In this document: positions 3,756 through 30,990 of the stretch, piece after piece
How positions within the stretch are numbered: position 1 is the stretch's first letter
How the letters are laid out: each line of letters begins with the position of its first letter
From: Abditibacteriaceae bacterium
Lineage (GTDB): Bacteria > Armatimonadota > Abditibacteriia > Abditibacteriales > Abditibacteriaceae
Direction: 5' to 3'
Length of the DNA stretch: 34,595 nucleotides
NCBI GenBank assembly: GCA_031372065.1
Contig: JANMKN010000133.1
Span: 1-34,595, forward strand
The notes under the pieces: model-generated
The model's database searches: none
Seen by the model: only the letters and a program-made list of their open reading frames with translations
What the model was told of the DNA's origin: nothing
Translations under genes and position numbers: made by a program

Positions 3756-3859
3756 GGCATATCTTTTCAAAATCCTCTGACATCGTCGGAAATCGCATAT
3801 AATATAGCGTTGTCTATTCATGGCTGACGCAGTTGTCAGATTTTCTTATTTCCTGCACC

Positions 3860-5905
3860 ATGAGCAACCATCAGCGAAAAACTTCATCTCCCCCAGCCAC
3901 AGCAGCGGCGCGGCAACAGCGTTGGGTGCCGTATCTTTTGCTGACCTGCCTCATGACTTTGTTCGCCCGCGTGCCGCATGAGGAAGGCTGGCATATTGCG
4001 GATTATCTTGATACTTTTGGTTTGGACGGCTGCTTTGTGCGGCGCGGCGCTTTGCCCACAGACTTTGTCGCCAACAAACTGGTGCCCACAAAAGATTTTC
4101 TGCTTATCGAGGTGCCGCATAATGCTCCGCCGGAATTAATACCGAAACTCCTACGCCAACTCAAGCCCGCTAAAGTTGTGGCGATTGATGTGATATTCGC
4201 CAATAAACGCGCTGAAATTCCTCCCGCACACTTACATCTCTTTGGCGCGGAGCCTGCGCGATGGCAACGTGAAGATAACCTGTTGGCTGCTGCTATCAAA
4301 GAAAGCGGCAATGTCATCATCGGTTGTTGGCCGAATACAAAGCGTGTGCCGGTGCCGGGGAAACTCAATAAAACCACCCCGCTGATTGAATGGCAGCATC
4401 CCCCCGATGTGATTTGGAACGCCGCACGCTGGCACGCCCATTTGCTCGTTGAACCTTCGCCAATAGATGGAAAAACACGCTCAGTTCATCTTTTTAAAGA
4501 CGTAAAATTCTCAGATACCAAAACTGCTCTGCAAATGCCCTCCTTGAGTTTGGCCGCCGCTGCCGCGTCGGAAAACTTGACGCAAAACCAACTTGGCCAT
4601 CTTAAAATTCAACGCAACCAACTGACGCTGGGAAACCACACCGTGTCCGTGCCCCAAGATGGCCTGATGACCATTGATTATTTGGGCGGACGCGAAGAAT
4701 TCGATAACAGCGCTATTCATTGGAACTACAGCTTCGCGATTGACGACATCGGCCCGGAAGATGTCGCCGGTAAAATTGTGTTTTTAGGACGCACCGATTT
4801 CACCGCGAAAGATGATTTCACTACGCCTTTTGACAATATGCCCGGTGTTCATGTCCATATGCACGCCGTTTCCACGCTACTGGGTTCGGAGCGGGCGCCA
4901 TCGGAGATTGCTTTTTGGCAAACATGGTTGATTGCCTTTGCTTGTTGCATTGTGTTGGTGCTGTCGCTGCAAAGGTTGTCTTTAATGGGCAGCCTCGCGG
5001 TGGGCCTTCTTTTGTGCGTTTTGATATTCCTGAGTTGCTACCAACTATTCATTGATTACCATCGTTATTTTCCCACCAGTGTGCCAGTTTTAGCGGTGAT
5101 TCTCACCTACAATGGCATAGCGCTTTTTGAATATGGGCGCACGCGCGCTGTGCTGGCCAAGTTTGTCGGGCGTGATTTCGTCCGCACTCTAATGCACCCA
5201 CTGCGCAGTCTGTCGCTTGGCGGACAATCCGAAGTTGCCACGGCGTTTTTCTGCGATTTGCGAGGCTTTAGCACGGCTTCAGAGCATCTGCCGTCCAGCA
5301 CTACAGAACCGCTCGTGACAGCCTACACCTCCACGGTTACCGAAGTCGCCATGCGTTTTGGCGGGCGCGTCATAGATTATTTTGGCGATGGTATTTTCAT
5401 TCTTTTTCAAGAATCCAGCAAAAAATCCGACGCGAACCATGCCGTTCGTGCCGTGCAAGCCGCAGTGCAAGCCCAAACCGCTCTGGCCAAGGTGTTAACC
5501 AATTGGACAAAACTGGCGGGCGTCGAACTGACATTCGCGGTGGGAATCAACTCAGGGGAAATGATTATCGGCGTGATTGGCTCTGAAGAACACATGAAAC
5601 TCGGCGCTGTTGGCGATACCGTCAATGTCGCAGCCCGCGTGCAGGGATTGACCAATCAATGCGATTATGGCATCCTTGTCACCAAAGAAACGCAAGATTT
5701 AATCGGTGACCAAATAGCGCTGACATCTTGCGGCCAATTCGCTGTCAAAGGGCGCCAACAGGAAGTCTGGCTTTTCGGCACAGGCCAAGTCAAACAAGCG
5801 ATGATTAAAACCGATGAGGTTGAAGCCAAAGCCGTAGATTCGATGAGCCTGATTAACCAAGCGCCCTCCGTGGAATTACGAGAGTTAAATAAACCTAATG
5901 TGTGA
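3860..5905 (+). CDS. CHASE2-domain class III nucleotidyl (adenylate/guanylate) cyclase
   Basis: N-terminal hydrophobic helix; CHASE2 motifs (AKVVAIDVIF, DNLLAAAIKESGNVI, GKIVFLG, TPFDNMPGVHVHMHAVSTLL); 3 TM helices; cyclase motifs FCDLRGFS, GDG, GINSGEMIIG, GDTVNVAAR, VKGR. ATG 3860 preferred over TTG 3833. Confidence 0.92.
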   Translation: MSNHQRKTSSPPATAAARQQRWVPYLLLTCLMTLFARVPHEEGWHIADYLDTFGLDGCFVRRGALPTDFVANKLVPTKDFLLIEVPHNAPPELIPKLLRQLKPAKVVAIDVIFANKRAEIPPAHLHLFGAEPARWQREDNLLAAAIKESGNVIIGCWPNTKRVPVPGKLNKTTPLIEWQHPPDVIWNAARWHAHLLVEPSPIDGKTRSVHLFKDVKFSDTKTALQMPSLSLAAAAASENLTQNQLGHLKIQRNQLTLGNHTVSVPQDGLMTIDYLGGREEFDNSAIHWNYSFAIDDIGPEDVAGKIVFLGRTDFTAKDDFTTPFDNMPGVHVHMHAVSTLLGSERAPSEIAFWQTWLIAFACCIVLVLSLQRLSLMGSLAVGLLLCVLIFLSCYQLFIDYHRYFPTSVPVLAVILTYNGIALFEYGRTRAVLAKFVGRDFVRTLMHPLRSLSLGGQSEVATAFFCDLRGFSTASEHLPSSTTEPLVTAYTSTVTEVAMRFGGRVIDYFGDGIFILFQESSKKSDANHAVRAVQAAVQAQTALAKVLTNWTKLAGVELTFAVGINSGEMIIGVIGSEEHMKLGAVGDTVNVAARVQGLTNQCDYGILVTKETQDLIGDQIALTSCGQFAVKGRQQEVWLFGTGQVKQAMIKTDEVEAKAVDSMSLINQAPSVELRELNKPNV

Positions 5906-6260: not shown

Positions 6261-6290
6261 GACAACTTGGGTTACAGCAGGTTTAAACAG

Positions 6291-9200
6291 ATGAAATCTA
6301 AGCATTTTCGTTATTCTTACACAGTTTCGTTTCTCGTGGTTTTGGGCACCTTTGGCACTTCCGCGCAAGCGCGTTTGGTGGGCAAAGTGCGCGGCATCCA
6401 CCCGCCTGTCGAAATGCGTCTGGGGCAAAATGGCACATGGCAACCAGCCGCAGATCGTTCCAGTATGTTGCCGGGGCAATACATTCGCTCTGGTTCTACC
6501 GGCTCTGCGTCGCTGAATTTCACCAGTGGCACGCGCGTTGTGCTTAATGCGAAAACGCAAGTGTTTATCGAGGGCGACGACACAGCGGCCCAACCATTGG
6601 CCCTTCGCGTTTTTGGCGCGCTGTCGCAAATTGTGGTGCGCTCTAAAGGCCCGATGCAAATTCGCGCGGCGGCGGCCATCGCTGCGCCACGCGGCACTGA
6701 ATACATGGTGACGCTGACCGATGAAAACACCATGGTCTTAACCGTCGCCGAAGGTTCAGTGCATTTTTACAACGCGCAGGGCGAGCAAATTGTGGGCGTC
6801 AACCAGCAAAGCACCGCCAAAGTGGGTCAGGCGCCGACGCCGCCGATGGCCGTAGATGCGTCCGGCCTGATGCAATGGGCTTTCGCTGTGGACGCCTTGC
6901 CCGTCGAATTTGAAATGCCCTCGAATGCCAAAGGCGATGTGGCGACGCTACGCGCTGCCGCTAATGCCAATCCCAACAATGCCGCCGCGCAAATAGCGCT
7001 GGGGGAAACGCTGCGACAAAGCGGCGACGCCAATGGCGCTGTCGCCGCTTATCAAAAAGCGGTGCAACTGGCGCCAAATGACACCGCGCGCGTTGGTTTG
7101 GCCGTCGCTTTGTTGGCGCGCAATGATGTAACGGCGGCGGGCAATGCGTTAGCCGCGAATCCCAACAGCGCCTTGGAATTAGCCGCGCGAGGTCTGGTGC
7201 AACTGCGCGCCAACGACGTGAACGCCGCCGTGCAATCGCTGACAGCAGCCGCGCAGCGCGACCCGCAAATGGCACAGGCGCCTTCCCTGTTGGCCTTGGC
7301 GCATCTCACGCAGAACAAAACAAACGACGCCATCGCCGATGCTCGTCGCGCCGTGCAATTAGCGCCAAATTCCTCGCAGGCGCAATCGGCGCTGTCATTG
7401 GCCTTGTTTTATGCCGGACAAACAAAAGAAGCCTCGCGCGCGGCAGCGCGGGCCGTGCAACTCAACCCCGAATCGCCCTTTGCCTTGTTGGTGCAAGGTC
7501 AGGCGCTTTTGGCGCAGCATCAAACCGATGCAGCGCGCACGACTTTGCAGCAAGCCGAAGGACTGGCGCCGAATCTTCCGTTGATTCAGTCCAATTTAGC
7601 CGCCGCTTATAATCGCCTCGATATGCCGCAGCGCGCTGAAAAAGCCTATCGCCGCGTGCTGGAAAAATCACCCGATTCCGCCGCCGCACACGCCGGTTTG
7701 GGCGGCGTTCTTCTTTCGTCGGGACACCCTAAAGAAGCTTTAGCCGAACTGCAACGCGCCGTCGAATTGGAACCGAACAATGTCTTGGCCCGCGCCAATT
7801 TGGCGCTGTATAACATCGAAATGGGCGACTTCGCTGCCGCAAAACAGGGCGCTGCCACGCTCGGCGACGACCCGGCCAGCGGCTTATTGTATATTCGCCT
7901 CTCGGACGCCAGTTTGTTTCAGCAAAAACTGTTTGAGGCGCAGGAATTCGCGCGCAAAGCCGTGAAACTCTTGCCTGATTCGGCCCCGGCACATTATCAA
8001 CTGGGCCGCGTTTATCGTGAGCAAGAGCGCAGCGTGCAAGCCGAACAGGAATTCCGGCAGGCCGTCATTCTCGACCCGCAATTTGCCGAGGCGCGTTTTG
8101 CATTGGGCCTGGCACGCGAAGCCGCCGAAAGCGGCAAAGACTTTGGCCGCCCGCTTAGTGCCATCGCTTCCAATGCCAGCGGGCCGCGTCAGGCGCTGAA
8201 CATTCAAAACTTGCAAACACCGGGCGCCGAAGACCGCTTGCAAGCCGCCATTCAAGACCCGTCTGTGGTGCGTAATGCCTCGCGCGCCTTTGGCGACAAC
8301 CAAATCGAAGGCGGCATCGGCGAAAATAACACCAACAACATCGGCCTGTCACATTTGCAAGACATCAACAACCGGCGCGGCAGTTTCGGCGCTTCGGTTA
8401 GTCGCAGTCATACCGACGGCGTGTGGCCTACCGCTGGTTTGACGCAGGAAAATATCGGCATTTTTGCCGGCAGTAAAAAACCGGACACCCCATCGGGCTT
8501 CTTTGCCCTTGGTCAAGTCAATCGCACCCGATTTGGAGATGATTCGGGACCAACTGCCCTACCAGCGGGAATAGCATTCAATACCCAAAAAACCATCCCT
8601 TTTACGGTGTTAGGCTATAACGATCAGACCACCGAAGATCAGCGCACTCGTTTTCTGCTGGCCTTTGATAATCCTAAGCAAGACAGCCTTGCGCCGAATG
8701 GCAGTTTTCTTAACACCAAAGGGCGCAGTATTCATGGTGAATTTCGTCACGATTTGTCGGTGGGCACTAATCATAACCTCAGTTTGGGTGCCTCGTTAGG
8801 CACCCGGCGTTTTGATGTGGATTTCTTAGCCAAAACGCCTCCCGGCCTTCCTTTTCCTGATTTTCGCCTTAAAACAGACAATCGCGTGGAACAAGAAAGT
8901 CTTTATCTGCGCGATGCCTTTCGCCTCGCCTCAAAATTGTCTATCATGGCCGAAATTAAGATGGTGCGAGTAGAAAACCGAAATACCAAAACGGTATTTG
9001 CACCAAGTAACGCCGAAAAGGAAACCACAGCAGGAGTCCCCAATCTGGTTACCAATTATCGTTTAGGACGAGGCAGCGAATTACGTTTCCGGGCGCGCGG
9101 TTTGGTAGGTGGCGTGAACGATTTCGATTTGCTTGCTCCTACTGATGTCTTCCTTTATAGCTTTGAGGGAGTGCCTTCGTTGAAATTGAACTCGCGGGGC

Positions 9201-9758
9201 AGTTCGTATGAATTGGAACTTAGCCACCAACTGGGCAAAGGATCGTTTTTGCGGTTTGGCGCCTTTCAGCGTAATCTTGATGCGGTGACCTTGGATAGTG
9301 GAGAACCTATCACCGACACGAAATTTCGCTCGGTGCGGGCGCTTGTTGAAGGCTCCTTAACAGCATCAACCACTTATTTCATCGGCACCAATTTCAACGA
9401 CGCGAAGGGCCTTATTACCTTTGATGATGGCAGCGTTGACAACAATTATCAACTGACCCGTGTGCCCCGATTCAGTATGGAAACCGGCCTACAATTCTTA
9501 AATCACAAAGGTTGGTTTGTGCAGCCAACGATTGCCTATATTGGCTCGCGATTGCAACCCGGCGACGGCACACCGCGCGCTAAATTGGGCAGTTTTACTT
9601 TAGTGAATCTCCGCGTCGGAAAGCGTGCAGGATTGCGCTCGACGATTTTTATCGAAGCGGCCAACCTTACCAACCAAAATTACGTTGCGCCCGGTGGATT
9701 TCAAGGCGAACAACAACCGGGCCGACAATTTCGCGCAGGCATGGAGCGACGGTTTTAG
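6291..9758 (+). CDS. FecR-domain / TPR-repeat / outer-membrane beta-barrel (TonB-receptor-like) protein
   Basis: Signal peptide ending SAQA; FecR signature (IRSGSTGSASLNF...AAPRGTEYMV...VAEGSV); many TPRs (AYQKAVQLAP, RRAVQLAP, FRQAVILDP); C-terminal amphipathic strands, NLTNQNY...PGRQFRAGMERRF with terminal Phe. Confidence 0.85.
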   Translation: MKSKHFRYSYTVSFLVVLGTFGTSAQARLVGKVRGIHPPVEMRLGQNGTWQPAADRSSMLPGQYIRSGSTGSASLNFTSGTRVVLNAKTQVFIEGDDTAAQPLALRVFGALSQIVVRSKGPMQIRAAAAIAAPRGTEYMVTLTDENTMVLTVAEGSVHFYNAQGEQIVGVNQQSTAKVGQAPTPPMAVDASGLMQWAFAVDALPVEFEMPSNAKGDVATLRAAANANPNNAAAQIALGETLRQSGDANGAVAAYQKAVQLAPNDTARVGLAVALLARNDVTAAGNALAANPNSALELAARGLVQLRANDVNAAVQSLTAAAQRDPQMAQAPSLLALAHLTQNKTNDAIADARRAVQLAPNSSQAQSALSLALFYAGQTKEASRAAARAVQLNPESPFALLVQGQALLAQHQTDAARTTLQQAEGLAPNLPLIQSNLAAAYNRLDMPQRAEKAYRRVLEKSPDSAAAHAGLGGVLLSSGHPKEALAELQRAVELEPNNVLARANLALYNIEMGDFAAAKQGAATLGDDPASGLLYIRLSDASLFQQKLFEAQEFARKAVKLLPDSAPAHYQLGRVYREQERSVQAEQEFRQAVILDPQFAEARFALGLAREAAESGKDFGRPLSAIASNASGPRQALNIQNLQTPGAEDRLQAAIQDPSVVRNASRAFGDNQIEGGIGENNTNNIGLSHLQDINNRRGSFGASVSRSHTDGVWPTAGLTQENIGIFAGSKKPDTPSGFFALGQVNRTRFGDDSGPTALPAGIAFNTQKTIPFTVLGYNDQTTEDQRTRFLLAFDNPKQDSLAPNGSFLNTKGRSIHGEFRHDLSVGTNHNLSLGASLGTRRFDVDFLAKTPPGLPFPDFRLKTDNRVEQESLYLRDAFRLASKLSIMAEIKMVRVENRNTKTVFAPSNAEKETTAGVPNLVTNYRLGRGSELRFRARGLVGGVNDFDLLAPTDVFLYSFEGVPSLKLNSRGSSYELELSHQLGKGSFLRFGAFQRNLDAVTLDSGEPITDTKFRSVRALVEGSLTASTTYFIGTNFNDAKGLITFDDGSVDNNYQLTRVPRFSMETGLQFLNHKGWFVQPTIAYIGSRLQPGDGTPRAKLGSFTLVNLRVGKRAGLRSTIFIEAANLTNQNYVAPGGFQGEQQPGRQFRAGMERRF

Positions 9759-9879
9759 CCGAAAAAGCAAAGCGCTAATTACACCTTTACAAAATAGGCC
9801 AAAGTTCGTAAAATTCGGCAAGCAATCGAGAACATTCGTTCATTTCGATTGATAATCTGGATTTAAGAAAGGGTGCACA

Positions 9880-10350
9880 ATGGCAGAAGCACTTAAGGTG
9901 CAGTTCTCACACAATAAAATTGCTGTCAATGACCAAGTCGAAATCAAAGTGAAAGACTTAGACACGGGGCGTAAAGTGGCAACTACACCCGGCAAATGCA
10001 CGACCGCAGGAACAATTGAGATACCTGTTTCTCTTCCCAAGGCAGCGACCTACTTGATCCGGGTAATCAAAATTGAAGCTGAAGACTGGGCTGTCAAAGA
10101 CACGGAAAAAGAAAAGGATGTTGGCGCCGGAGCAACAGAAAATGTGCCCTTTGAGGTGAAGAAGCTGCGTAAACGTCCGAAAAAGGTCAATGCTGCTGAT
10201 CGTGACGAGGATGTCGAAATTCAATTGACCAAAGATGTCTTGACGGTCTGTTGTGCTCTGATTGACCAAAGGATTGCTTCTGGAAAGTCAATTGATGCGA
10301 TCCAAGACGAAATTCTGGATAAAATCACCAAACTGGTCGAAAGTGCTTGA
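9880..10350 (+). CDS. Hypothetical protein A: predicted beta-sandwich, basic linker, C-terminal helices
   Basis: 156-aa ORF with AAGGGT RBS-like site; alignable by eye to the N-terminal ~145 aa of 10790..11500. Confidence 0.75.
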   Translation: MAEALKVQFSHNKIAVNDQVEIKVKDLDTGRKVATTPGKCTTAGTIEIPVSLPKAATYLIRVIKIEAEDWAVKDTEKEKDVGAGATENVPFEVKKLRKRPKKVNAADRDEDVEIQLTKDVLTVCCALIDQRIASGKSIDAIQDEILDKITKLVESA

Positions 10351-10369
10351 CCTGTGAGAGGAATCTGAA

Positions 10370-10702
10370 ATGACCAAAGAAACGAATTCACAGACTGCTG
10401 ATCTCACATCGTTCTCCTACTTACAAGAGCAGGAAATTAACGTTGTTCCTGTTGCACTCATTAAACCGACACCGGATGAATTTGACATTCCGACACGTTA
10501 TAATGCGAAACCTATTCCATCTCTTGCAGATTTAACCGTTGAACCGGTGCAACAGTGGATTCAGTTACCAAACAGCACTCACCAACTATTACCGTTGGTA
10601 ATGGTTCTGTGTTCTGTGTGTTACAACCGCTACAATACACCGGGAACAAACTACTACATGAATCAAGCAGCCCTGAACACTTGCATGACCGGTTGCACCT
10701 AA
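10370..10702 (+). CDS. Hypothetical protein B: leader-like region plus C-terminal 36-aa four-Cys peptide
   Basis: GAGAGGA RBS; C-terminus PLVMVLCSVCYNRYNTPGTNYYMNQAALNTCMTGCT repeated in the next gene. Confidence 0.8.
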   Translation: MTKETNSQTADLTSFSYLQEQEINVVPVALIKPTPDEFDIPTRYNAKPIPSLADLTVEPVQQWIQLPNSTHQLLPLVMVLCSVCYNRYNTPGTNYYMNQAALNTCMTGCT

Positions 10703-10706
10703 AGCG
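10592..10706 (+). repeat. 115-bp direct repeat, copy 1
   Basis: Matches 11390-11504 (offset 798) with 5 mismatches. Confidence 0.97.
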
Positions 10707-10789
10707 TTGCCCGCAAAAGCAACCACGGATCATGAGTAGAACTTCCCTTTCAGGAACCCACAAAAACAAGACAGACAAAGGAGACATTC

Positions 10790-11500
10790 ATGCCGAAAAT
10801 CGAAGGTAACATCACAGGCGCGATAGGCACCAATGACGAGGTCATTGTCAGCTTGCGCGAAACGCCGGAAGGCGATGACCTCGCCTCAGTCATAACCGTC
10901 GGACCAAGTTCGTTTTCACTGGAAGCACCGGGAACCGGGAAGTATTTCGTTTGCGCTGACGAAAACATGGAAGAATGGGCGTTTGCCACAAATTCTGTGG
11001 AAGTAGACGCCTCAAACGGCAGCGTGCCGAGTATCACATTTGAGGCTGTTCAATTGGTGCCTGCCTCTATGGTGGTGAACGACGAGGTTGATCGGCAGTT
11101 CGTCATCCATCTTCTTGAAGTCTGTTTGCAAAACGCCGACAAGATGATGGACGAACGGGGCGTGCAGGAAGGTCGTCGGTTCATCCGCAACACGATCATG
11201 GAAGCACTCAGAAAAGATGCGGATGATATGCCCGAAAGCCCGCAAGAGCAGGAAACTCAGGCCAACGCTCCTCAACAACAGCACCAATGGCGTGATATGG
11301 ATGAGTTCTCAGATGTTGCACTGGTGGAAGAAGATGTGCAGCCATTCGACCAATGGCTTTTACTGCCGACAGGTGAGCGATTCGTCCGTCCGCTGGTAAT
11401 GGTTCTGTGTTCTGTGTGTTACAACCGCTACAATACACCGGGCACAGGCTATTACATGAATCAAGCAGCCCTGAACACTTGCATGACCGGTTGCACCTAA
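10790..11500 (+). CDS. Hypothetical fusion protein A'B' (homolog of A fused to homolog of B)
   Basis: AAGGAG RBS; N-terminal part aligns to A, C-terminal part aligns to B, last 36 aa 35/36 identical to B. Confidence 0.85.
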   Translation: MPKIEGNITGAIGTNDEVIVSLRETPEGDDLASVITVGPSSFSLEAPGTGKYFVCADENMEEWAFATNSVEVDASNGSVPSITFEAVQLVPASMVVNDEVDRQFVIHLLEVCLQNADKMMDERGVQEGRRFIRNTIMEALRKDADDMPESPQEQETQANAPQQQHQWRDMDEFSDVALVEEDVQPFDQWLLLPTGERFVRPLVMVLCSVCYNRYNTPGTGYYMNQAALNTCMTGCT

Positions 11501-11504
11501 AGCG
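11390..11504 (+). repeat. 115-bp direct repeat, copy 2
   Basis: Matches 10592-10706 with 5 mismatches. Confidence 0.97.
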
Positions 11505-11515
11505 GCGCCTCCACA

Positions 11516-11557
11516 AAAATGGCTCCTTCCAACGTGGAAGGAGCCGTTTCTTTTTTT
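11516..11557. terminator. Bidirectional intrinsic terminator
   Basis: GGCTCCTTCCA-ACG-TGGAAGGAGCC stem, A-run before and T-run after, between convergent genes. Confidence 0.85.
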
Positions 11558-24266: not shown

Positions 24267-24288
24267 TTCATCGCAAAATTACGATTAA
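24267..24288 (+). promoter_or_regulatory. Second copy of putative ArsR operator
   Basis: TTCATCGCAAAATTACGATTAA, 19/22 identical to the core of the first operator. Confidence 0.7.
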
Positions 24289-24941
24289 TGAAACAAAAAT
24301 TGGCGGCAGAATTTTGGGGCACGTTTGCGCTGTTGTTCGCGGGAACCGGTGCGGTTGTCATCAACGAAGCGAGCGGCGCGGTGACGCACGTTGGCATCGC
24401 CATCACGTTTGGCCTTATCATCATGGCGATGATTTACACGCTCGGCGATGTGTCCGGCGCACATTTTAACCCGGCGGTGACGATTGCTTTTGCTTTTGCA
24501 AAACGCTTCGCGTGGCGCGAAGTCGGGCCGTATATTTTGGCGCAATGTGTGGGGGCACTCTTGGGCAGTGGCGTTTTGAAATTGCTGTTTCCCGACAGCA
24601 AAAATCTGGGCGCTACCCTGCCCGCCGGATCGAATTTCCAATCGTTCGTTTTGGAATTTTTGCTGACAGCGCTGCTCATGTTTGTGATTCTCAACGTTTC
24701 CACGGGTGCCAAGGAAAAAGGCATCACGGCGGGCATTGTTATCGGCTCGATTATCGGTTTGGAAGCGATGTTCGCCGGGCCGATTTGTGGCGCTTCGATG
24801 AATCCGGCGCGCTCTTTAGCGCCCGCGCTTTTGTCGGGAAACGTTTCCACGCTGTGGATTTATATTTTGGCGCCAATTTTCGGCGCACTGGCGGGTGTTT
24901 TGGCCTTGGGCACCGTGCGCGATGGCAAAACAACCGATTAA
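24288..24941 (+). CDS. MIP-family channel (AqpS-like arsenite channel)
   Basis: AEFWGT, SGAHFNPAVT and GASMNPARS NPA motifs; ars operon context. Confidence 0.92.
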   Translation: MKQKLAAEFWGTFALLFAGTGAVVINEASGAVTHVGIAITFGLIIMAMIYTLGDVSGAHFNPAVTIAFAFAKRFAWREVGPYILAQCVGALLGSGVLKLLFPDSKNLGATLPAGSNFQSFVLEFLLTALLMFVILNVSTGAKEKGITAGIVIGSIIGLEAMFAGPICGASMNPARSLAPALLSGNVSTLWIYILAPIFGALAGVLALGTVRDGKTTD

Positions 24942-24953
24942 AAAGGATTTAAC

Positions 24954-25412
24954 ATGAAATTGCATCAATTCAAAGCCTTGCTGGAAGCCAATCGCGACAA
25001 GCAATTCCGGCTTCAACTGCCGGACGAAAAAGACGTTCCGGTTTCGTTTCACATCACCGAAGTCGGCCAAGTGAACAAGACGTTCATTGACTGCGGCGGC
25101 AAGGTTCACAGCGTTCAAACCTGCCAACTGCAAGTCTGGCTTGGCCCGGACAGCGAACATCGCCTCGAAGCGGGCAAAATGGCCGACATTCTCAAAGTCG
25201 CGCAGAAAATTGTGCCCGATGACAATCTCGATTTGGAAATCGAATACGAAGACCAAATCATCTCACAATATCCCGTCGCCGGGTCGCAAATTACTGACGA
25301 GGCGGTCACGCTACGCTTGACCAGCAAACACACCGATTGTCTGGCGAAAGAACTTTGTCTCACGCCTGTTGGTGCCTCATCTTGTGGCTGCGGCCCGACG
25401 TGTTGCAGCTAA
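24954..25412 (+). CDS. DUF6428-like protein with Cys-rich C-terminus
   Basis: VPVSFHITEVG...FIDCGG...QVW...EIEY...KHTDCLAKELC...CGCGPTCC; family assignment from recall, not from a search. Confidence 0.75.
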   Translation: MKLHQFKALLEANRDKQFRLQLPDEKDVPVSFHITEVGQVNKTFIDCGGKVHSVQTCQLQVWLGPDSEHRLEAGKMADILKVAQKIVPDDNLDLEIEYEDQIISQYPVAGSQITDEAVTLRLTSKHTDCLAKELCLTPVGASSCGCGPTCCS

Positions 25413-25423
25413 AGGAAACGTTA

Positions 25424-25861
25424 ATGACCAAGAAAAAAGTTTTGTTCGTGTGCATTCACAATTCGGCGCGTTCGGTGATGGGCGCGGCCCTGCTTAATGA
25501 ACTTTGCGGTGACCAATTTGAAGCGGAAAGCGCTGGTTTAGAGCCGGGCAAACTCAATCCGCTGGCTATCCAAGTTCTCAAAGAAATCGGAATTGATGTA
25601 GCCGATTATCAGCCGCGTGCCGTATTTGATGTGATTAAATCGGGCGTGCTGTTCGCTAATGTTATCACGGTTTGCGACGAAACCAGCGCCGAGCGTTGCC
25701 CGATTTTTCCCGGCCCCACCGAGCGTTTGCATTGGAGTTTTGCCGACCCATCCGCTCTGCAAGGCACTTGGGAGGAAAAACTCGCGGGCACCCGCGAAAT
25801 TCGCGAGCAAATCAGGCAGCGCATCCAAACTGAATTTTGCCCGGCTAAGTGCCTTTTCTAA
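25424..25861 (+). CDS. arsC: Arsenate reductase, LMW-PTP fold
   Basis: VLFVCIHNSARS P-loop, SAG, TVCD...ERCPIFPG, HWSFADP; AAGGA RBS before ATG 25424. Confidence 0.9.
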   Translation: MTKKKVLFVCIHNSARSVMGAALLNELCGDQFEAESAGLEPGKLNPLAIQVLKEIGIDVADYQPRAVFDVIKSGVLFANVITVCDETSAERCPIFPGPTERLHWSFADPSALQGTWEEKLAGTREIREQIRQRIQTEFCPAKCLF

Positions 25862-25965
25862 GATGTAAAAGCGCGCGACCTTCTTTGTGTCAACGCGCTG
25901 CCACCACACCACATAAACTGCATAATCGGGATGCAGCGCGATTTAATAAAATAGCGAGAAAACCA

Positions 25966-26394
25966 ATGAACCAACCCGATAAACCACAAGAACGGCCACG
26001 CCACTGGATGCTTTTCGACGGCGACTGCGGAATGTGCCGTCGTTGCGCGCACTGGGTCATCCGCAACGATAGCAAAGGCAAATTCATCGGCGCGCCGTTT
26101 CAAAATACGCCGTCGCCGCCAATGACGCTTGAACTGAAAAAGGCCTGCGCATTCGCGGTTCACGTCGTCAAAAGCGATGGCGAAATTTTGCGCGGCGGCG
26201 TGGCGGCGATGTTCCTCATTCGCGAAATAGTGCCGCGTCCGTGGGGTTTTATACCGCGCCTTTTAGGGCAAGCGCCGTGGATTGTGCCTATCGAGATTGG
26301 CTATCAAATCATCGCACGAAATCGCCTGTTTTTCGCGCGATTTATTCTGCCGGATGAGCCAAAAGCGCCGCTGGAGCCGACCATCCATGAATAA
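25966..26394 (+). CDS. DCC1-like thiol-disulfide oxidoreductase (DUF393)
   Basis: LFDGDCGMC DxxCxxC motif; YQIIARNR. Confidence 0.88.
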   Translation: MNQPDKPQERPRHWMLFDGDCGMCRRCAHWVIRNDSKGKFIGAPFQNTPSPPMTLELKKACAFAVHVVKSDGEILRGGVAAMFLIREIVPRPWGFIPRLLGQAPWIVPIEIGYQIIARNRLFFARFILPDEPKAPLEPTIHE

Positions 26395-27106
26395 GCGCGA
26401 ACGCGTGGTGATGCGCTCGGCGTGGCACCATTTGTTGTTTTTGCATTGGGAGATCGAACCCGCGCTTTTGCAAGAAAAACTGCCGCCGGGTTTGCAACTC
26501 GATACTTTTAAGAATCGCGCTTATATTGGCCTTGTGCCGTTCACGATGACCGCCGTGCGCCCGCATGGTTTGCCGCATTTGCCGCCGCTTCGACGCTGGC
26601 ATGAAGACTTTCACGAAATCAATGTGCGAACCTATGTGCGACACGAAAAATATGGCCCCGGCGTGTGGTTTTTCTCGCTTGATGCTGCCAGCGCCCCGGC
26701 TGTTCTCGTGGCGCGCCACTGGTTCAAATTGCCTTATTTTTACGCGCGCATGAGTTTGCAAAAAAAAATAAATAAAATTCGCTACACCTCGCAGCGCAAT
26801 TGGCCGCAACCTACGCCCGCTGGATGCGAAATCGAATATCAAATTGAGGGTAAGGCCGCGCCCGCTGCGCCGGGCACTTTAGATTATTTTTTAGTCGAAC
26901 GCTATTTGCTGTATTCCTATTCGCGCAGCCAATTATTTGTGGGCCGCGTGCGCCACAAGCCTTATCAAATCCAACCGACAAAATTGCTTTCGATAAATGA
27001 AAATCTCATCGGCGCAGCGGGCATTTCGCGCCCGAATACCGCGCCGCTAATTCACTACGCACGCGGCGTGAAAGTAGATATTTTCAAGCTGCAACGCACA
27101 ACATGA
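26387..27106 (+). CDS. YqjF/DUF2071 family protein
   Basis: WHHLLFLHW, GLVPFTM, EINVRTYV, PGVWFFSLDA, LPY, FLVERY; overlaps the previous stop. Confidence 0.9.
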   Translation: MNKRERVVMRSAWHHLLFLHWEIEPALLQEKLPPGLQLDTFKNRAYIGLVPFTMTAVRPHGLPHLPPLRRWHEDFHEINVRTYVRHEKYGPGVWFFSLDAASAPAVLVARHWFKLPYFYARMSLQKKINKIRYTSQRNWPQPTPAGCEIEYQIEGKAAPAAPGTLDYFLVERYLLYSYSRSQLFVGRVRHKPYQIQPTKLLSINENLIGAAGISRPNTAPLIHYARGVKVDIFKLQRTT

Positions 27107-27184: not shown

Positions 27185-29674
27185 ATGCTCCTGAATCCTT
27201 ATATTGCAGGCAACCCGATTAAAGGCGAGGTGGGCTTTTATGGCCGCGATGATATTTTTCGCTCAGTCATGCAGGTGCTACGCCACCCAAACAGCAACGC
27301 TCTTGTGCTATTTGGGCAACGGCGCATTGGAAAAACTTCGGTGCTGTTGCAACTCGAACGACAATTAGATGCAAACGGCGAATACACACCCGTTTACTTT
27401 GATCTTCAAGATAAAGCTGCAAAATCCTTAACCGAAGTGCTTTATGAATTAGCCCAGCGCATTGCGACTAAGGTCAATCAACCACTGCCTGATCGCAAGA
27501 GTTTTGATCAAGCAGGCGAATATTTTCGAAATACATTCCTCCCACTTGCCGCCGTAGCCGCTGCGCCGGGTGGAATTGTCCTGCTGTTTGATGAATTCGA
27601 TGTGCTGGACAGCCCAGATTCAGAACGCGCTGGTCAGGAATTTTTCCCTTATCTGCGCGATTGGATGTCGGCTATCCAACGGGTGAAATTTGTTTTCGTC
27701 ATAGGACGGCGCCCTGAAGACCTTTCTACGAAAACTATGTCCACGCTTAAAGGAGTTGGTGCGACTCGCGTTTCACTACTGGAGCGTAAAGCGGCTGAAG
27801 CTGTTGTGCGCCAATCCGAGCGAAATGGCAGTCTGCTTTGGAGTGATTCTGCTGTTGAAAAAGTATGGGAATGGACACAAGGCCATACCTATTTTACCCA
27901 ATTGTTATGCAGTGTAGCTTGGGAAAACGCCCAAGAAGAGGAAAGGATCGAGTTGGGAGTTCAAGCGGCTGATGTAGAAGGCGCAGTAGAACAAACAATG
28001 CAACAGGGAGCCAATGCTTTTCAGTGGATATGGAGCGGTCTGCCTCCGGCTGAACGCGTCGTGATGGGCGCTATGGCAGAATCCGAAGATGAGGTCATCA
28101 CACCAGATAACTTGGTCGAAATCCTCAACCGTAGTGGTGTCCGCCTAATGATGAGAGAACTGCAAATCGCGCCCGAAACACTCGCTAATTGGGAATTGCT
28201 GCGTCCTATTGACCAAGGTCATCGCTTTGTCGTGCCTTTTTTCCGTCTCTGGGTAAAACAACATTACCCCCTACGTCGGGTCAAAGAAGAACTTGATCGT
28301 ATTGATCCGTTAGCAGATAACTACTACAGAATCGGGCAGAGCCGGTATCGTTTTGGTCAATTGGAAGAATCCAGAAATGGCCTCGAAGAAGCTCTCAAGA
28401 TTAACCCAAATCATTTAGGCGCACGATTATTGCTGGGCCGCATCTTGCTGGAAACCCACCAGATTAATGAGGCTATCGCCGTCTTAGAAGAAGCTTTCCT
28501 ATATGATGCAGGAGCTGCCAGAAGTGATTTAGTGCGGGCCTTACTGATCGTGCTTGAGTTGGCACCAGTAGCGGAGCAATTAGCAATTTGTGAACGCATT
28601 TTGGGCATAGAACCGAATCAACCAATTGCACGGGATAAACGGCGTGCATTGCTCATGACAAGCCAACTACAAGAGGCCAACGAAAAAGAGTCGGCTGAAT
28701 TATGGGAGCAAGCAATTGTTGTTTATACGGCTCTCTTGGAGCAATATCCTGATGCTACAGAGTTGCAAGCTAAGATTGAACACGCTCAAAAAAACTCCGA
28801 ACTTGCACAATCCTACAATAAGGCACTGGGAGCATTGCAATCGGGCAACAAGGCCAATGCTAAACGACTGTTGGCTGGCGTGATCGCTCAACAACCGGAT
28901 TACAAAGAATCTGCACGCTATCTGCTTCGGACTACAACGGGTCACGATGTTGAACAAATAAAAGATGAAGTAGCATCCCTAAAAAAGGAAATACACAAGG
29001 GCAAGAAACTTTTGTCTCGCACGACGGAAGAGGCAGTAGGCAAAATCGATGAGTTGGAGAAACAAAATCACGAACTCAAAGAAGTGAATGAGAAACAGAA
29101 AACGTATGCAATGTCCCTCAAAAAGGAGATGGATACCAAAAATGAACTTTTGTCTCGCACAACAGAAGAGGCAGTGAGCAAAATCAATGAGTTGGAGAAA
29201 CAAAATCACGAACTTAAAGTGGTAGTTGCGAAGCAGAAAGAGTTGGAGAAACAAAATCACGAACTCAAAGCAATAATTGAAAAATACAAAACGACATCTA
29301 CTTCCTTCAAAGAGAAAGTAGATGCCAATAATGTAGCTTTGTCCCGCACCGCAAAAGAAGCGGAATTCAAAATCAACGAATTAGACAGACAAAAACAGGA
29401 ACTCACAGCGGCAATTGATACACACAACACAGGTTCAAATGGATGTGCGGGCTGCCTTAGCATGATACTTGGGCCTGCCTTGAGTTTTGGTGTTTATTAC
29501 GTTTATCCTAACCTCATCGGAGGAATTTATTCCTCTATAGCAATAGGTGTTGTAGCCTTCTTTATTTTTGCTGGTGTTATAGCCGGCATGGTTGAAGTGA
29601 AGATGCCTCCTGCTGACGGAGTGGAGGTTAAGAATGACAATGATCCGGCTGAAACAACGCAAAAAACGCCATGA
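27185..29674 (+). CDS. STAND-like P-loop ATPase + TPR + repeated coiled coil + 2 C-terminal TM helices
   Basis: NPYIAGNP..FYGR, Walker A GQRRIGKTS, Walker B LLFDEFD, TQGHTYFTQ, TPRs (EEALKINP, YTALLEQYP), heptad-rich region, two hydrophobic segments. Confidence 0.88.
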   Translation: MLLNPYIAGNPIKGEVGFYGRDDIFRSVMQVLRHPNSNALVLFGQRRIGKTSVLLQLERQLDANGEYTPVYFDLQDKAAKSLTEVLYELAQRIATKVNQPLPDRKSFDQAGEYFRNTFLPLAAVAAAPGGIVLLFDEFDVLDSPDSERAGQEFFPYLRDWMSAIQRVKFVFVIGRRPEDLSTKTMSTLKGVGATRVSLLERKAAEAVVRQSERNGSLLWSDSAVEKVWEWTQGHTYFTQLLCSVAWENAQEEERIELGVQAADVEGAVEQTMQQGANAFQWIWSGLPPAERVVMGAMAESEDEVITPDNLVEILNRSGVRLMMRELQIAPETLANWELLRPIDQGHRFVVPFFRLWVKQHYPLRRVKEELDRIDPLADNYYRIGQSRYRFGQLEESRNGLEEALKINPNHLGARLLLGRILLETHQINEAIAVLEEAFLYDAGAARSDLVRALLIVLELAPVAEQLAICERILGIEPNQPIARDKRRALLMTSQLQEANEKESAELWEQAIVVYTALLEQYPDATELQAKIEHAQKNSELAQSYNKALGALQSGNKANAKRLLAGVIAQQPDYKESARYLLRTTTGHDVEQIKDEVASLKKEIHKGKKLLSRTTEEAVGKIDELEKQNHELKEVNEKQKTYAMSLKKEMDTKNELLSRTTEEAVSKINELEKQNHELKVVVAKQKELEKQNHELKAIIEKYKTTSTSFKEKVDANNVALSRTAKEAEFKINELDRQKQELTAAIDTHNTGSNGCAGCLSMILGPALSFGVYYVYPNLIGGIYSSIAIGVVAFFIFAGVIAGMVEVKMPPADGVEVKNDNDPAETTQKTP
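28976..29420 (+). repeat. Intragenic 138-bp (46-aa) and 51-bp (17-aa) repeats
   Basis: SLKKE...LLSRTTEEAV.KI.ELEKQNHELK at 28976 and 29114; GAGTTGGAGAAACAAAATCACGAACT at 29051, 29189, 29240; third diverged unit SFKEK...LSRTAKEAEFKINEL. Confidence 0.9.
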
Positions 29675-30990
29675 GAATTAACATCAATCCCTTTATTTAC
29701 GGACCAGCCGTCAAACCGGCTGAGTTTTTAGGCCGCGAGCGAGAACTGCGCACCGTATTCTCACGTTTGGCAAACGGACAATCCGTCGCCATCGTTGGTG
29801 AGCCACATACTGGCAAAACTTCGTTGCTGCTCTACGTCATTGAAGAGACTCAAAGTGCTTGCGAGGGTAAATTCGACCGAGACGTGTTCAATTTACTTGA
29901 TGCTCAGGCAATGCGTGATGTGAAAACGCAGGCCGCTTTTTGGCAATGGGTTTTGGAGCCTCTGGGCGCGGCTTTGCAGGACGGAAATCTGCAATCACTG
30001 GACGATGTGAAGAATAACTATGCTGCGGCTAAGAAAAATGATTTTGGCACTTTTGTGCTGGAAAAGCTGTTTAAATCTCTTGGTGCTGCTGGTTCAAGAC
30101 TGTTCGTATTGCTGGACGAATTTGATGATTTCCTTTCTCATGAGGTATTGAACAAAGGGGAATTCTACGGCGGTTTGCGCTCTTTAGCTTCTCGGTGTGG
30201 TGGTCTGGTCTTAGTGTTAGCTGTGCGTCGTGATGTGAGCCAATTAAACAGCTTGACGCAGACCTATACCACTGGCTCTCCCTTCTTCAATATCTTTACA
30301 GATGTGCGGTTAAGTCCACTATCTCACAAAGCCATGAAAATTTTGTTGGATAAAGGAATAGATCGCTTTACGGCCAATGATCGTAACTTTGTAGCTGGCA
30401 TCAGCGGCAATCATCCTTATCTGGCACAAGCGGCGGCGGGTTTATTGTGGGAAGCCTACGACGAAGAATGCGAAACGAACCTTGAGCGTTTCGTTGCTAC
30501 AGGTCAAAGACTTCGTCAACAGGCAGAATCGCATTTTGCCGACACATGGCGTAATTGGTCGCATGACACCCGCAAAGCGGTCACGATGGTTGCTCTATCA
30601 CAAATCCCTCATCTCTTGCCCAGTCATGATTTTCTTGTGGAGGCATTGACCAAAGACCTGAACTCTTACCGCCGTGAACTGGAAAACCTGAAAAACCACG
30701 GTTTATTAGCAGAGAATGTAGAAATAGGCTGGATGGTCACGCAAGGCGCGTTTTTGTGGTGGCTATCTGATGAATTGTTGCGCACCGTGCGCAAAGATAC
30801 GGATTTCGAGGTCTGGCTGCGGGCACAAGAGTTAGATGGTGTGCTGACAAAAGACGAACGCGAACATTTGGCTCAGGCGTGGAAAAGTGTCAGTTCTGCC
30901 CTTGGCAAAGGTGCTACAGCCTTGATTGAGGCGGCAGCTAAAGGCGCGGCGGGAGCTATTTTCCCCGCACCCCCAAAGGCAAAGGATTGA
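29671..30990 (+). CDS. Second STAND-like P-loop ATPase, no recognisable sensor or effector domain
   Basis: NPFIYGPAV...FLGRERE, Walker A GEPHTGKTS, Walker B LLDEFD, SPFFNIF, SGNHPYLAQ; ATGA overlap with the upstream gene. Confidence 0.88.
   Translation: MRININPFIYGPAVKPAEFLGRERELRTVFSRLANGQSVAIVGEPHTGKTSLLLYVIEETQSACEGKFDRDVFNLLDAQAMRDVKTQAAFWQWVLEPLGAALQDGNLQSLDDVKNNYAAAKKNDFGTFVLEKLFKSLGAAGSRLFVLLDEFDDFLSHEVLNKGEFYGGLRSLASRCGGLVLVLAVRRDVSQLNSLTQTYTTGSPFFNIFTDVRLSPLSHKAMKILLDKGIDRFTANDRNFVAGISGNHPYLAQAAAGLLWEAYDEECETNLERFVATGQRLRQQAESHFADTWRNWSHDTRKAVTMVALSQIPHLLPSHDFLVEALTKDLNSYRRELENLKNHGLLAENVEIGWMVTQGAFLWWLSDELLRTVRKDTDFEVWLRAQELDGVLTKDEREHLAQAWKSVSSALGKGATALIEAAAKGAAGAIFPAPPKAKD

Follow-up and report, generated by a model that had tools for sequence, protein, structure and literature searches.

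Four-cysteine tail proteins encoded behind NsrA-like receptor and CHASE2 cyclase genes: candidate allele-specific ligands of an outer-membrane sensor

Background

Among described systems, the one nearest to the locus treated here is the NsrA - CyaK/CyaD1/CyaD2 - Clr pathway of Sinorhizobium meliloti, reportedly set out by Garnerone in 2018. NsrA and CyaK are required for sensing a protease-sensitive protein signal; cell extracts supply such a signal in the form of a cytoplasmic protein, and ribosomal uL2 acts as one when purified (PMC7529298; PMC13001267). A comparable cluster has also been noted in Campylobacterota (PMC9239204). Proteins with a FecR-TPR-barrel architecture beside CHASE2 cyclases are common, with up to 8 matches per genome in the bacterial family sampled here, and a moonlighting ribosomal protein is the only signal for them in the literature consulted.

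The window analysed here is the whole 34,595-nucleotide contig JANMKN010000133.1 of an Abditibacteriaceae bacterium (assembly GCA_031372065.1), whose genome, 94% complete, is designated G000. A sequence-only reading had singled out three small genes in it, called A, B and C below, as a split (A and B) and fused (C) module ending in a conserved four-cysteine peptide. That reading missed the NsrA-like receptor and the CHASE2 cyclase encoded upstream, which are most likely the functional partner of the tail proteins. We propose, as an evenly balanced judgement, that the four-cysteine tail is a self-made, allele-specific ligand of this receptor, and that both make up a ligand-receptor cassette feeding cyclic-nucleotide signalling.

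Organisation of the locus

Table 1. Features of the receptor and tail-gene locus in the window
Feature	Position	Strand	Description
CHASE2 - class III nucleotide cyclase, CyaK-like	3833-5905	+	Pfam CHASE2 and Guanylate_cyc
NsrA-like outer-membrane protein	6267-9758	+	Pfam FecR, TPR and TonB_dep_Rec_b-barrel
Sigma-70-like promoter match	9786-9814	+	10/12 positions; not above chance
Gene A	9880-10350	+	156 aa; prealbumin/CnaB-like beta-sandwich and helical hairpin, without tail or signal peptide
Gene B	10370-10702	+	110 aa; predicted disordered leader (1-80) and four-Cys tail
Repeat copy 1	10592-10718	+	B tail and bases past stop; 127 nt
Tail of B	10610-10699	+	CxxC-helix, TPGT loop, helix-CxxxC; predicted helical hairpin
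Gene C	10790-11500	+	236 aa; beta-sandwich 1-88, helical hairpin 98-140, linker 147-204, tail 207-236
Repeat copy 2	11390-11516	+	tail of C; 127 nt
Terminator-like hairpin	11517-11549	+	15 pairs; T-runs on both strands

The three open reading frames delimited in the sequence-only reading were recovered at the same positions on the plus strand (Table 1). Two of its negative statements also hold: a Kyte-Doolittle scan found no hydrophobic N-terminal stretch in A, B or C, and none of the three has a Pfam or NCBIfam match. A third is that no modifying enzyme or transporter is adjacent. No maturase was seen in the gene lists around the loci, but the statement overlooks an outer-membrane barrel gene, the end of which lies 121 nt before the start of A. 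The linker of C is predicted to be disordered and is acidic, and the complete C form (sandwich, hairpin, linker and tail) is also kept in G002 and G003. The terminator-like hairpin closes the A-B-C unit, a convergent alcohol dehydrogenase gene lying beyond it, and in a related strain (run X4, about 93% DNA identity) A is likewise found behind the receptor.

The window cyclase matches S. meliloti cyaK at 27% over residues 387-642 (tblastn) and is probably an inner-membrane transducer with ATP or GTP as putative substrate. The window receptor aligns over 1057 columns (hhalign, probability 99.9, E 7.7e-32) with the product of the gene directly upstream of S. meliloti cyaK, which we take, from its position, to be nsrA. 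Four of the six HTH_Crp_2 (CRP-type) matches in G000 are over the cut-off. This genome also encodes a VKOR homologue, and a search of it for the DsbA family (PF01323, PF13462; controls matched) gave no match.

As for regulatory elements, the single sigma-70-like promoter match is at chance level (1.9 expected in shuffles), and no CRP-like site is common to the upstream regions compared. SOS control was considered for a GAAC-N4-GTTC site at 9830, a Gram-positive LexA box, and was rejected: the motif is not enriched in G000 (54 occurrences, against 40-74 with other spacers), and neither recA nor the lexA match is preceded by it. Elsewhere in G000, an intergenic palindrome, TGTGAAC-CATG-GTTCACA, recurs (C284:416, C284:18767 and C408:7409, with near matches at C282:13697 and C370:14350) and is probably a regulator site. 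The window also holds, at 27185-30990, two overlapping low-GC genes of STAND-type NTPases, one with TPRs, possibly an anti-phage system, and, at 24288-27106, aquaporin, DUF6428, LMW phosphatase/arsenate-reductase-like, DCC1-like and DUF2071 genes, a group that looks like an arsenic-resistance cluster.

Relationship between A, B and C

The sequence-only reading had A and B aligning end to end with C, and proposed HHalign as a check of the A part. Residues 12-142 of C share 22% identity with A (BLASTP, pairwise E 8e-7), and A matches five close C sequences weakly (hhalign, probability 13.5, E 0.002). However, when only 13 distant family members are used to make an N-terminal profile, it matches A with E 5e-9, a score reached by 0 of 200 shuffles, and we therefore consider the homology real. 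On these profiles A is a distant paralogue of the front part of C. For B the alignment stands over the last 60 residues only (70% identity), with no demonstrated match to C for residues 1-50. Two motifs, QEQE and DEF, had been read as shared by B and C; neither is conserved in the four closest orthologues of C, although an exact 13-nt repeat does lie beneath QEQE.

The tails themselves are encoded by a repeat whose two copies are 92% identical and extend beyond the stop codon. Over 37 codons the copies differ by 3 synonymous and 1 non-synonymous changes, whereas C and its G002 orthologue differ by 7 and 8, respectively, in the same comparison; such nearly identical tails on old paralogues suggest a recent gene conversion. 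Contigs of public runs (three runs of one study, one of which may be the source of the window itself) contain both left and both right repeat junctions as well as the middle piece from copy 1 to copy 2, and these pieces, none of which covers the whole stretch, support two tandem copies. No further copy of the repeat or tail was found in G000. A and B lie in different frames, B has its own ribosome-binding site, and stand-alone relatives of the B form exist (P0010 and P0012), which argues against A and B being a broken C. The proposed association of the A module with the tail is supported by the relatives, most of which have both fused and one of which (G001) has them split again.

The four-cysteine tail family and its predicted folds

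A profile search of 1.84 billion representatives returned 16 matches, 13 of which are family members; P0008, P0013 and P0020 were discarded as unrelated repeat proteins. Scoring 8000 candidates with the tail profile gave 27 clusters, in all of which the tail is C-terminal. It is about 30 residues long. Cys 2, 3 and 4, one Thr and one Asn never vary; an R, Y, P, G and T seldom do, nor does the first Cys, which P0005 and P0011 have lost. What comes ahead of the tail is, in most members, a beta-sandwich with a helical hairpin, and in others the sandwich by itself, a short leader that is acidic and has a recurring LAD motif (the B type) or a signal-peptide-like stretch. The latter is present in 3 of the 27 members and in the G019 protein, suggesting that the tail is exported in some lineages; the other 24, those of the window among them, have no signal peptide. 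P0011, encoded on a 1.97-Mb contig, has three tail repeats with acidic spacers, and its two internal repeats retain only the inner Cys pair, a suggestive pattern as this is how a disulfide would behave.

When 401 genomes of the phylum were searched with the tail profile, strong matches came from G262 and from each of the 4 genomes of the genus, and 4 further short, weak matches (E 0.001-0.007) were treated as noise. The viral contigs and plasmids searched contained no family member. Single-sequence searches of 40 relatives found no stand-alone A-type gene, the one in G001 being recognised through synteny. The tail is the mark of an unnamed family, in agreement with the earlier suggestion of an undescribed system with a conserved four-cysteine peptide.

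In the AlphaFold2 model of B only the tail is ordered, with helices at 81-89 and 99-107 and a pLDDT above 90, and C is predicted to consist of the sandwich, the helical hairpin, the disordered linker and a tail hairpin (pLDDT 70-74). In these models the tail is a helix-loop-helix hairpin of about 30 residues, and the hairpin already supposed for it is therefore helical by prediction. The N-terminal sandwich, by profile and model comparison, is CnaB/SdrD-B/prealbumin-like: of the 14 members aligned, 8 match SdrD_B and 7 match CarboxypepD_reg, and its best Foldseek matches are minor pilins, UafA and SdrD. For the tail, which is very small for such comparisons, the best Foldseek E is 2.9 and the best VIA Z is 2.0, and an Atlas search gave no usable match. 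A rubredoxin or zinc-finger likeness was rejected, the PDB matches being partial only (E 0.05-2).

Linkage of tail genes to receptor loci

Receptor homologues were gathered within the bacterial family and by a barrel search of a sample of the phylum. A four-cysteine-tail gene lies behind 11 of the 14 close receptor loci that have downstream DNA (G000, G001, G002, G003, G012, G021, G023, G006, G019, G028, with two genes, and G266), the pattern used being four Cys and 50 residues, which shorter or two-Cys peptides escape. Five close loci ending at contig ends were left out. The 11 positive loci come from 11 genomes, 6 genera and 3 families, their flanks differ and both orientations occur; in G000 and G001 the tail gene comes after an A-type gene. 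Of the three loci without a tail gene, two are second copies, one in G012 and one in G021; the other is the second receptor of G266, behind which the sequence has a small gap. Among distant paralogues with at least 2 kb downstream, 0 of 23 have such a neighbour (4 more, without downstream DNA, were left out), three short, far-off ORFs flagged by the pattern being judged spurious. As a background, 23 of 5280 ORFs in G000 match the pattern. No P value is given for this linkage because kin are not independent. In a tree of 34 receptors (without those of G002, G019, G028 and G266), the 10 close ones form one clade with support 1.0, in which the two tail-less members are sisters.

The genomic context is known for 6 of the 27 tail clusters. 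G002 and G003 have the order cyclase, receptor, C, while in G001 cyclase and receptor are followed by an A-like gene with a frameshift and then by a tail gene with a signal peptide; a metagenome contig (L011) carries two tail genes in tandem, and the flanking genes differ among G001, G002, G003 and the metagenome loci. No cyclase match was found near the receptor in G006 and G266. Outside the TPGT type, the tails of G012, G021, G023, G006, G019, G028 and G266 do not score above shuffles on the TPGT core profile, and among them only those of G012 and G021 are tied to the family, via the N-terminal domain. G262 was left out, its receptor and its TPGT-type tail gene lying at contig ends without overlap; the tail gene has cold-shock and adenosyltransferase-like neighbours in common with the G012 and G023 loci.

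Several loci show features of their own. The split A-like gene of G001 (L040:5950-6509) reflects either decay or a sequencing error, and the receptor gene of G002 (L005:6377-9884) is frameshifted in the assembly. In G266 (L134:4159-11704), a convergent Cys-tail gene separates two tandem genes of NsrA-like receptors, and none of the listed ORFs was recognised as a CHASE2 cyclase. A separate clade of receptor paralogues (G000:C171, L106 in G002, L087 and L088 in G003) is directly followed by genes of large secreted proteins, which share a Cys-containing stretch after the signal peptide and carry Calx-beta or Ig/cadherin repeats; this is a second receptor-neighbour pairing. At two sister receptors, L085 (G003:C157) and G000:C293, the space between receptor and cyclase is taken by convergent genes for small or secreted proteins, of 108 and 165 aa in G003 and of 412 aa in G000.

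Co-variation of barrel and tail

In two independent trios of receptors, the identity of the barrel tracks the type of tail and not the rest of the receptor. In the first, the receptors of G000 and G001 are 72-74% identical in FecR and TPR and 42% in the barrel, and those of G000 and G003 are 61-62% and 55%, respectively, the switch in identity lying near residue 700-735; the G001 tail matches that of G000 at 15/30 positions and the G003 tail at 22/30. In the second, the TPR parts of G021, G023 and G012 are 74-77% alike, and the barrel is 58% identical between G021 and G023, whose tails are similar, and 36-37% to G012, whose tail differs. Over 45 pairs from 10 loci, tail identity correlates better with barrel identity (rank correlation, rho 0.59) than with TPR identity (0.24), values that are descriptive only, since kin are not independent. 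The G001-G002 pair fits poorly, with tails identical at 19/30 (63%) though the barrels are at 39%; the tails of G002 and G003 are also at 19/30, with a barrel identity of 60%. The joint variation suggests that barrel and tail gene are an exchangeable cassette, although it could also arise without contact, through joint recombination of adjoining genes.

Discussion

Proposed mechanism

That relatives keep a tail gene behind the receptor, and that this gene changes along with the outer barrel, makes it likely that the tail is the sensor's own signal. Once released and oxidised, it would be stapled into a hairpin by an inner and probably an outer disulfide and would bind the outer face of the receptor barrel; the FecR-TPR part would then relay the signal to the CHASE2 cyclase, whose cyclic nucleotide may act via CRP-family regulators. 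Forms with a signal peptide would be secreted by Sec, and the signal-less A, B and C might reach the outside on lysis or by another route, release by lysis being in line with the response of NsrA to a cytoplasmic protein. The beta-sandwich and helical module would serve as carrier or scaffold for the tail, a role for A that fits the one case of G001, where the A-like gene is frameshifted and the tail has its own signal peptide. B and C may have been homogenised so that both display a tail fitting the local barrel allele. Export is the main gap of the ligand proposal, with no signal peptide on A, B and C and no C39 transporter in G000; the missing DsbA match (VKOR being present) and the three close receptors without a tail gene also count against it, as do the tails that stay off the TPGT core profile, the small number of clusters with known context, the poorly fitting G001-G002 pair and the receptors of G006 and G266, which have no cyclase match nearby.

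More tentatively, and as a scenario we would sooner doubt than adopt, these genes could form a kin-specific system of diderms. Cells would stock a cytoplasmic carrier with an allele-specific Cys tail, to be released on lysis, or secreted in those forms that have a signal peptide in place of the carrier, and a burst of cyclic nucleotide would follow only in relatives whose barrel allele matches; barrel and tail would be swapped as one cassette, giving pherotypes.

Alternative explanations

The alternative that survives best, though unlikely, is that the tail proteins are no diffusible signal but belong to the receptor as accessory subunits or blockers, plugging it in the periplasm or at the surface and so holding the barrel off or on. 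The same linkage and the same co-variation with the barrel would be expected, and signal-peptide forms would reach the periplasm; most forms, however, lack a signal peptide and could not meet a periplasmic site, the gene is absent at 3 of 14 close and all 23 distant receptors, and it is the barrel that varies and not the periplasmic TPR.

Export through an outer-membrane barrel is known from Slam/type XI and two-partner secretion, the SlipAM/DUF560 barrel being the mark of Slam. Somewhat less probable again is a reading in which the receptor barrel is an export pore and the tail proteins its cargo, the tail being the export signal of a small adhesin-like domain. The TPR and barrel architecture, a weak TPR_Slam match below the cut-off, the likeness of the N-terminal domain to CnaB/SdrD-B pilin and adhesin domains, and the other receptor clade with its large secreted Calx-beta or Ig proteins all speak for it. 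On the other hand, the FecR domain, the neighbouring CHASE2 cyclase and the NsrA homology point to sensing, no SlipAM/DUF560 is found among the Pfam matches at E up to 0.01, and the barrel fits a TonB-receptor-like model. Moreover, a signal-less cargo would need an inner-membrane step to reach an outer-membrane pore, and the signal-peptide forms carry little besides the tail.

The sequence-only reading had favoured B as a RiPP or bacteriocin precursor with A as its chaperone or immunity protein, to which we now give a slim chance. An acidic leader with its LAD motif ahead of a Cys/Tyr/Thr-rich end, the triple-core P0011 and the tandem copies in G000, L011 and G028 would suit such a precursor. 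The search for orphan YcaO and peptidase-ABC genes proposed at that time gave 0 YcaO and 0 C39 matches in G000 (controls matched in 5 and 7 of 14); among the 27 window proteins scanned with Pfam there is no radical SAM enzyme, while a LanC search of G000 gave 0 matches, as did its control search. With no maturase seen among the genes listed beside the loci and no conserved cleavage motif in the alignments, the precursor claim is not supported; the module of A is normally fused to the tail, which makes an immunity function of A unlikely, and the linkage to receptor and cyclase would be left unexplained.

Finally, a cytoplasmic metal-binding module (Zn or Fe), acting as output or redox partner of the cyclase pathway, is an equally poor candidate for the tail: CxxC plus C-x3/5-C, the lack of a signal peptide in most members and of a DsbA match in G000 would agree with it, but the first Cys is lost in P0005 and P0011, two repeats hold two Cys only, exported forms exist, co-variation is with the outer barrel and no metal-site family or fold was matched.

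Significance and comparison with known systems

If the ligand proposal and its extension to kin are true, these tails would give NsrA/CHASE2 receptors their first self-encoded ligands. A 30-residue candidate ligand that can be synthesised, and for which both fitting and non-fitting barrel alleles occur in nature, opens the question of what these receptors sense to direct test, and may bring to light a kin signalling by peptides that runs over an outer-membrane receptor and a cyclase. The receptor-cyclase pair is already of a known kind; no description of the tail family, the carrier module or the allelic link to the barrel was found in Pfam, NCBIfam, PDB or the literature searched, which covered few subscription papers.

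For its parts, the module resembles several known proteins. The N-terminal beta-sandwich of A and C is like CnaB/SdrD-B/prealbumin domains; unlike CnaB/SdrD-B proteins, C has a single such domain, lacks both a signal peptide and a wall anchor, and continues into a helical hairpin and a Cys tail. Glycocins such as sublancin and plant alpha-hairpinins are disulfide helix-loop-helix peptides, with which the tail would share, by prediction, two short helices and nested Cys pairs; it differs from them in its Cys spacing, its conserved TPGT loop and the absence of a glycosyltransferase or C39 transporter.

At the level of the whole system, the NsrA pathway has in common with the window a FecR-TPR-barrel homologue adjoining a CHASE2 cyclase, as well as the presence of CRP-family genes, and the signal known for it is likewise a protein. 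That protein, ribosomal uL2, is however foreign or universal, and no tail gene is annotated beside cyaK, whereas in the window the order is cyclase then receptor, and the receptor has a linked gene for a candidate ligand, which varies along with the barrel. Finally, agr and comQXPA are allelic peptide quorum-sensing cassettes (pherotypes) in which, as here, the gene for the peptide adjoins the sensing part of the receptor and the two vary as a block, while the signalling part is conserved. These cassettes use inner-membrane histidine kinases and short, enzyme-modified peptides in monoderms, whereas the system of the window would combine a barrel in the outer membrane with a cyclase and with a disulfide hairpin, predicted to be of 30 residues, on a carrier protein.
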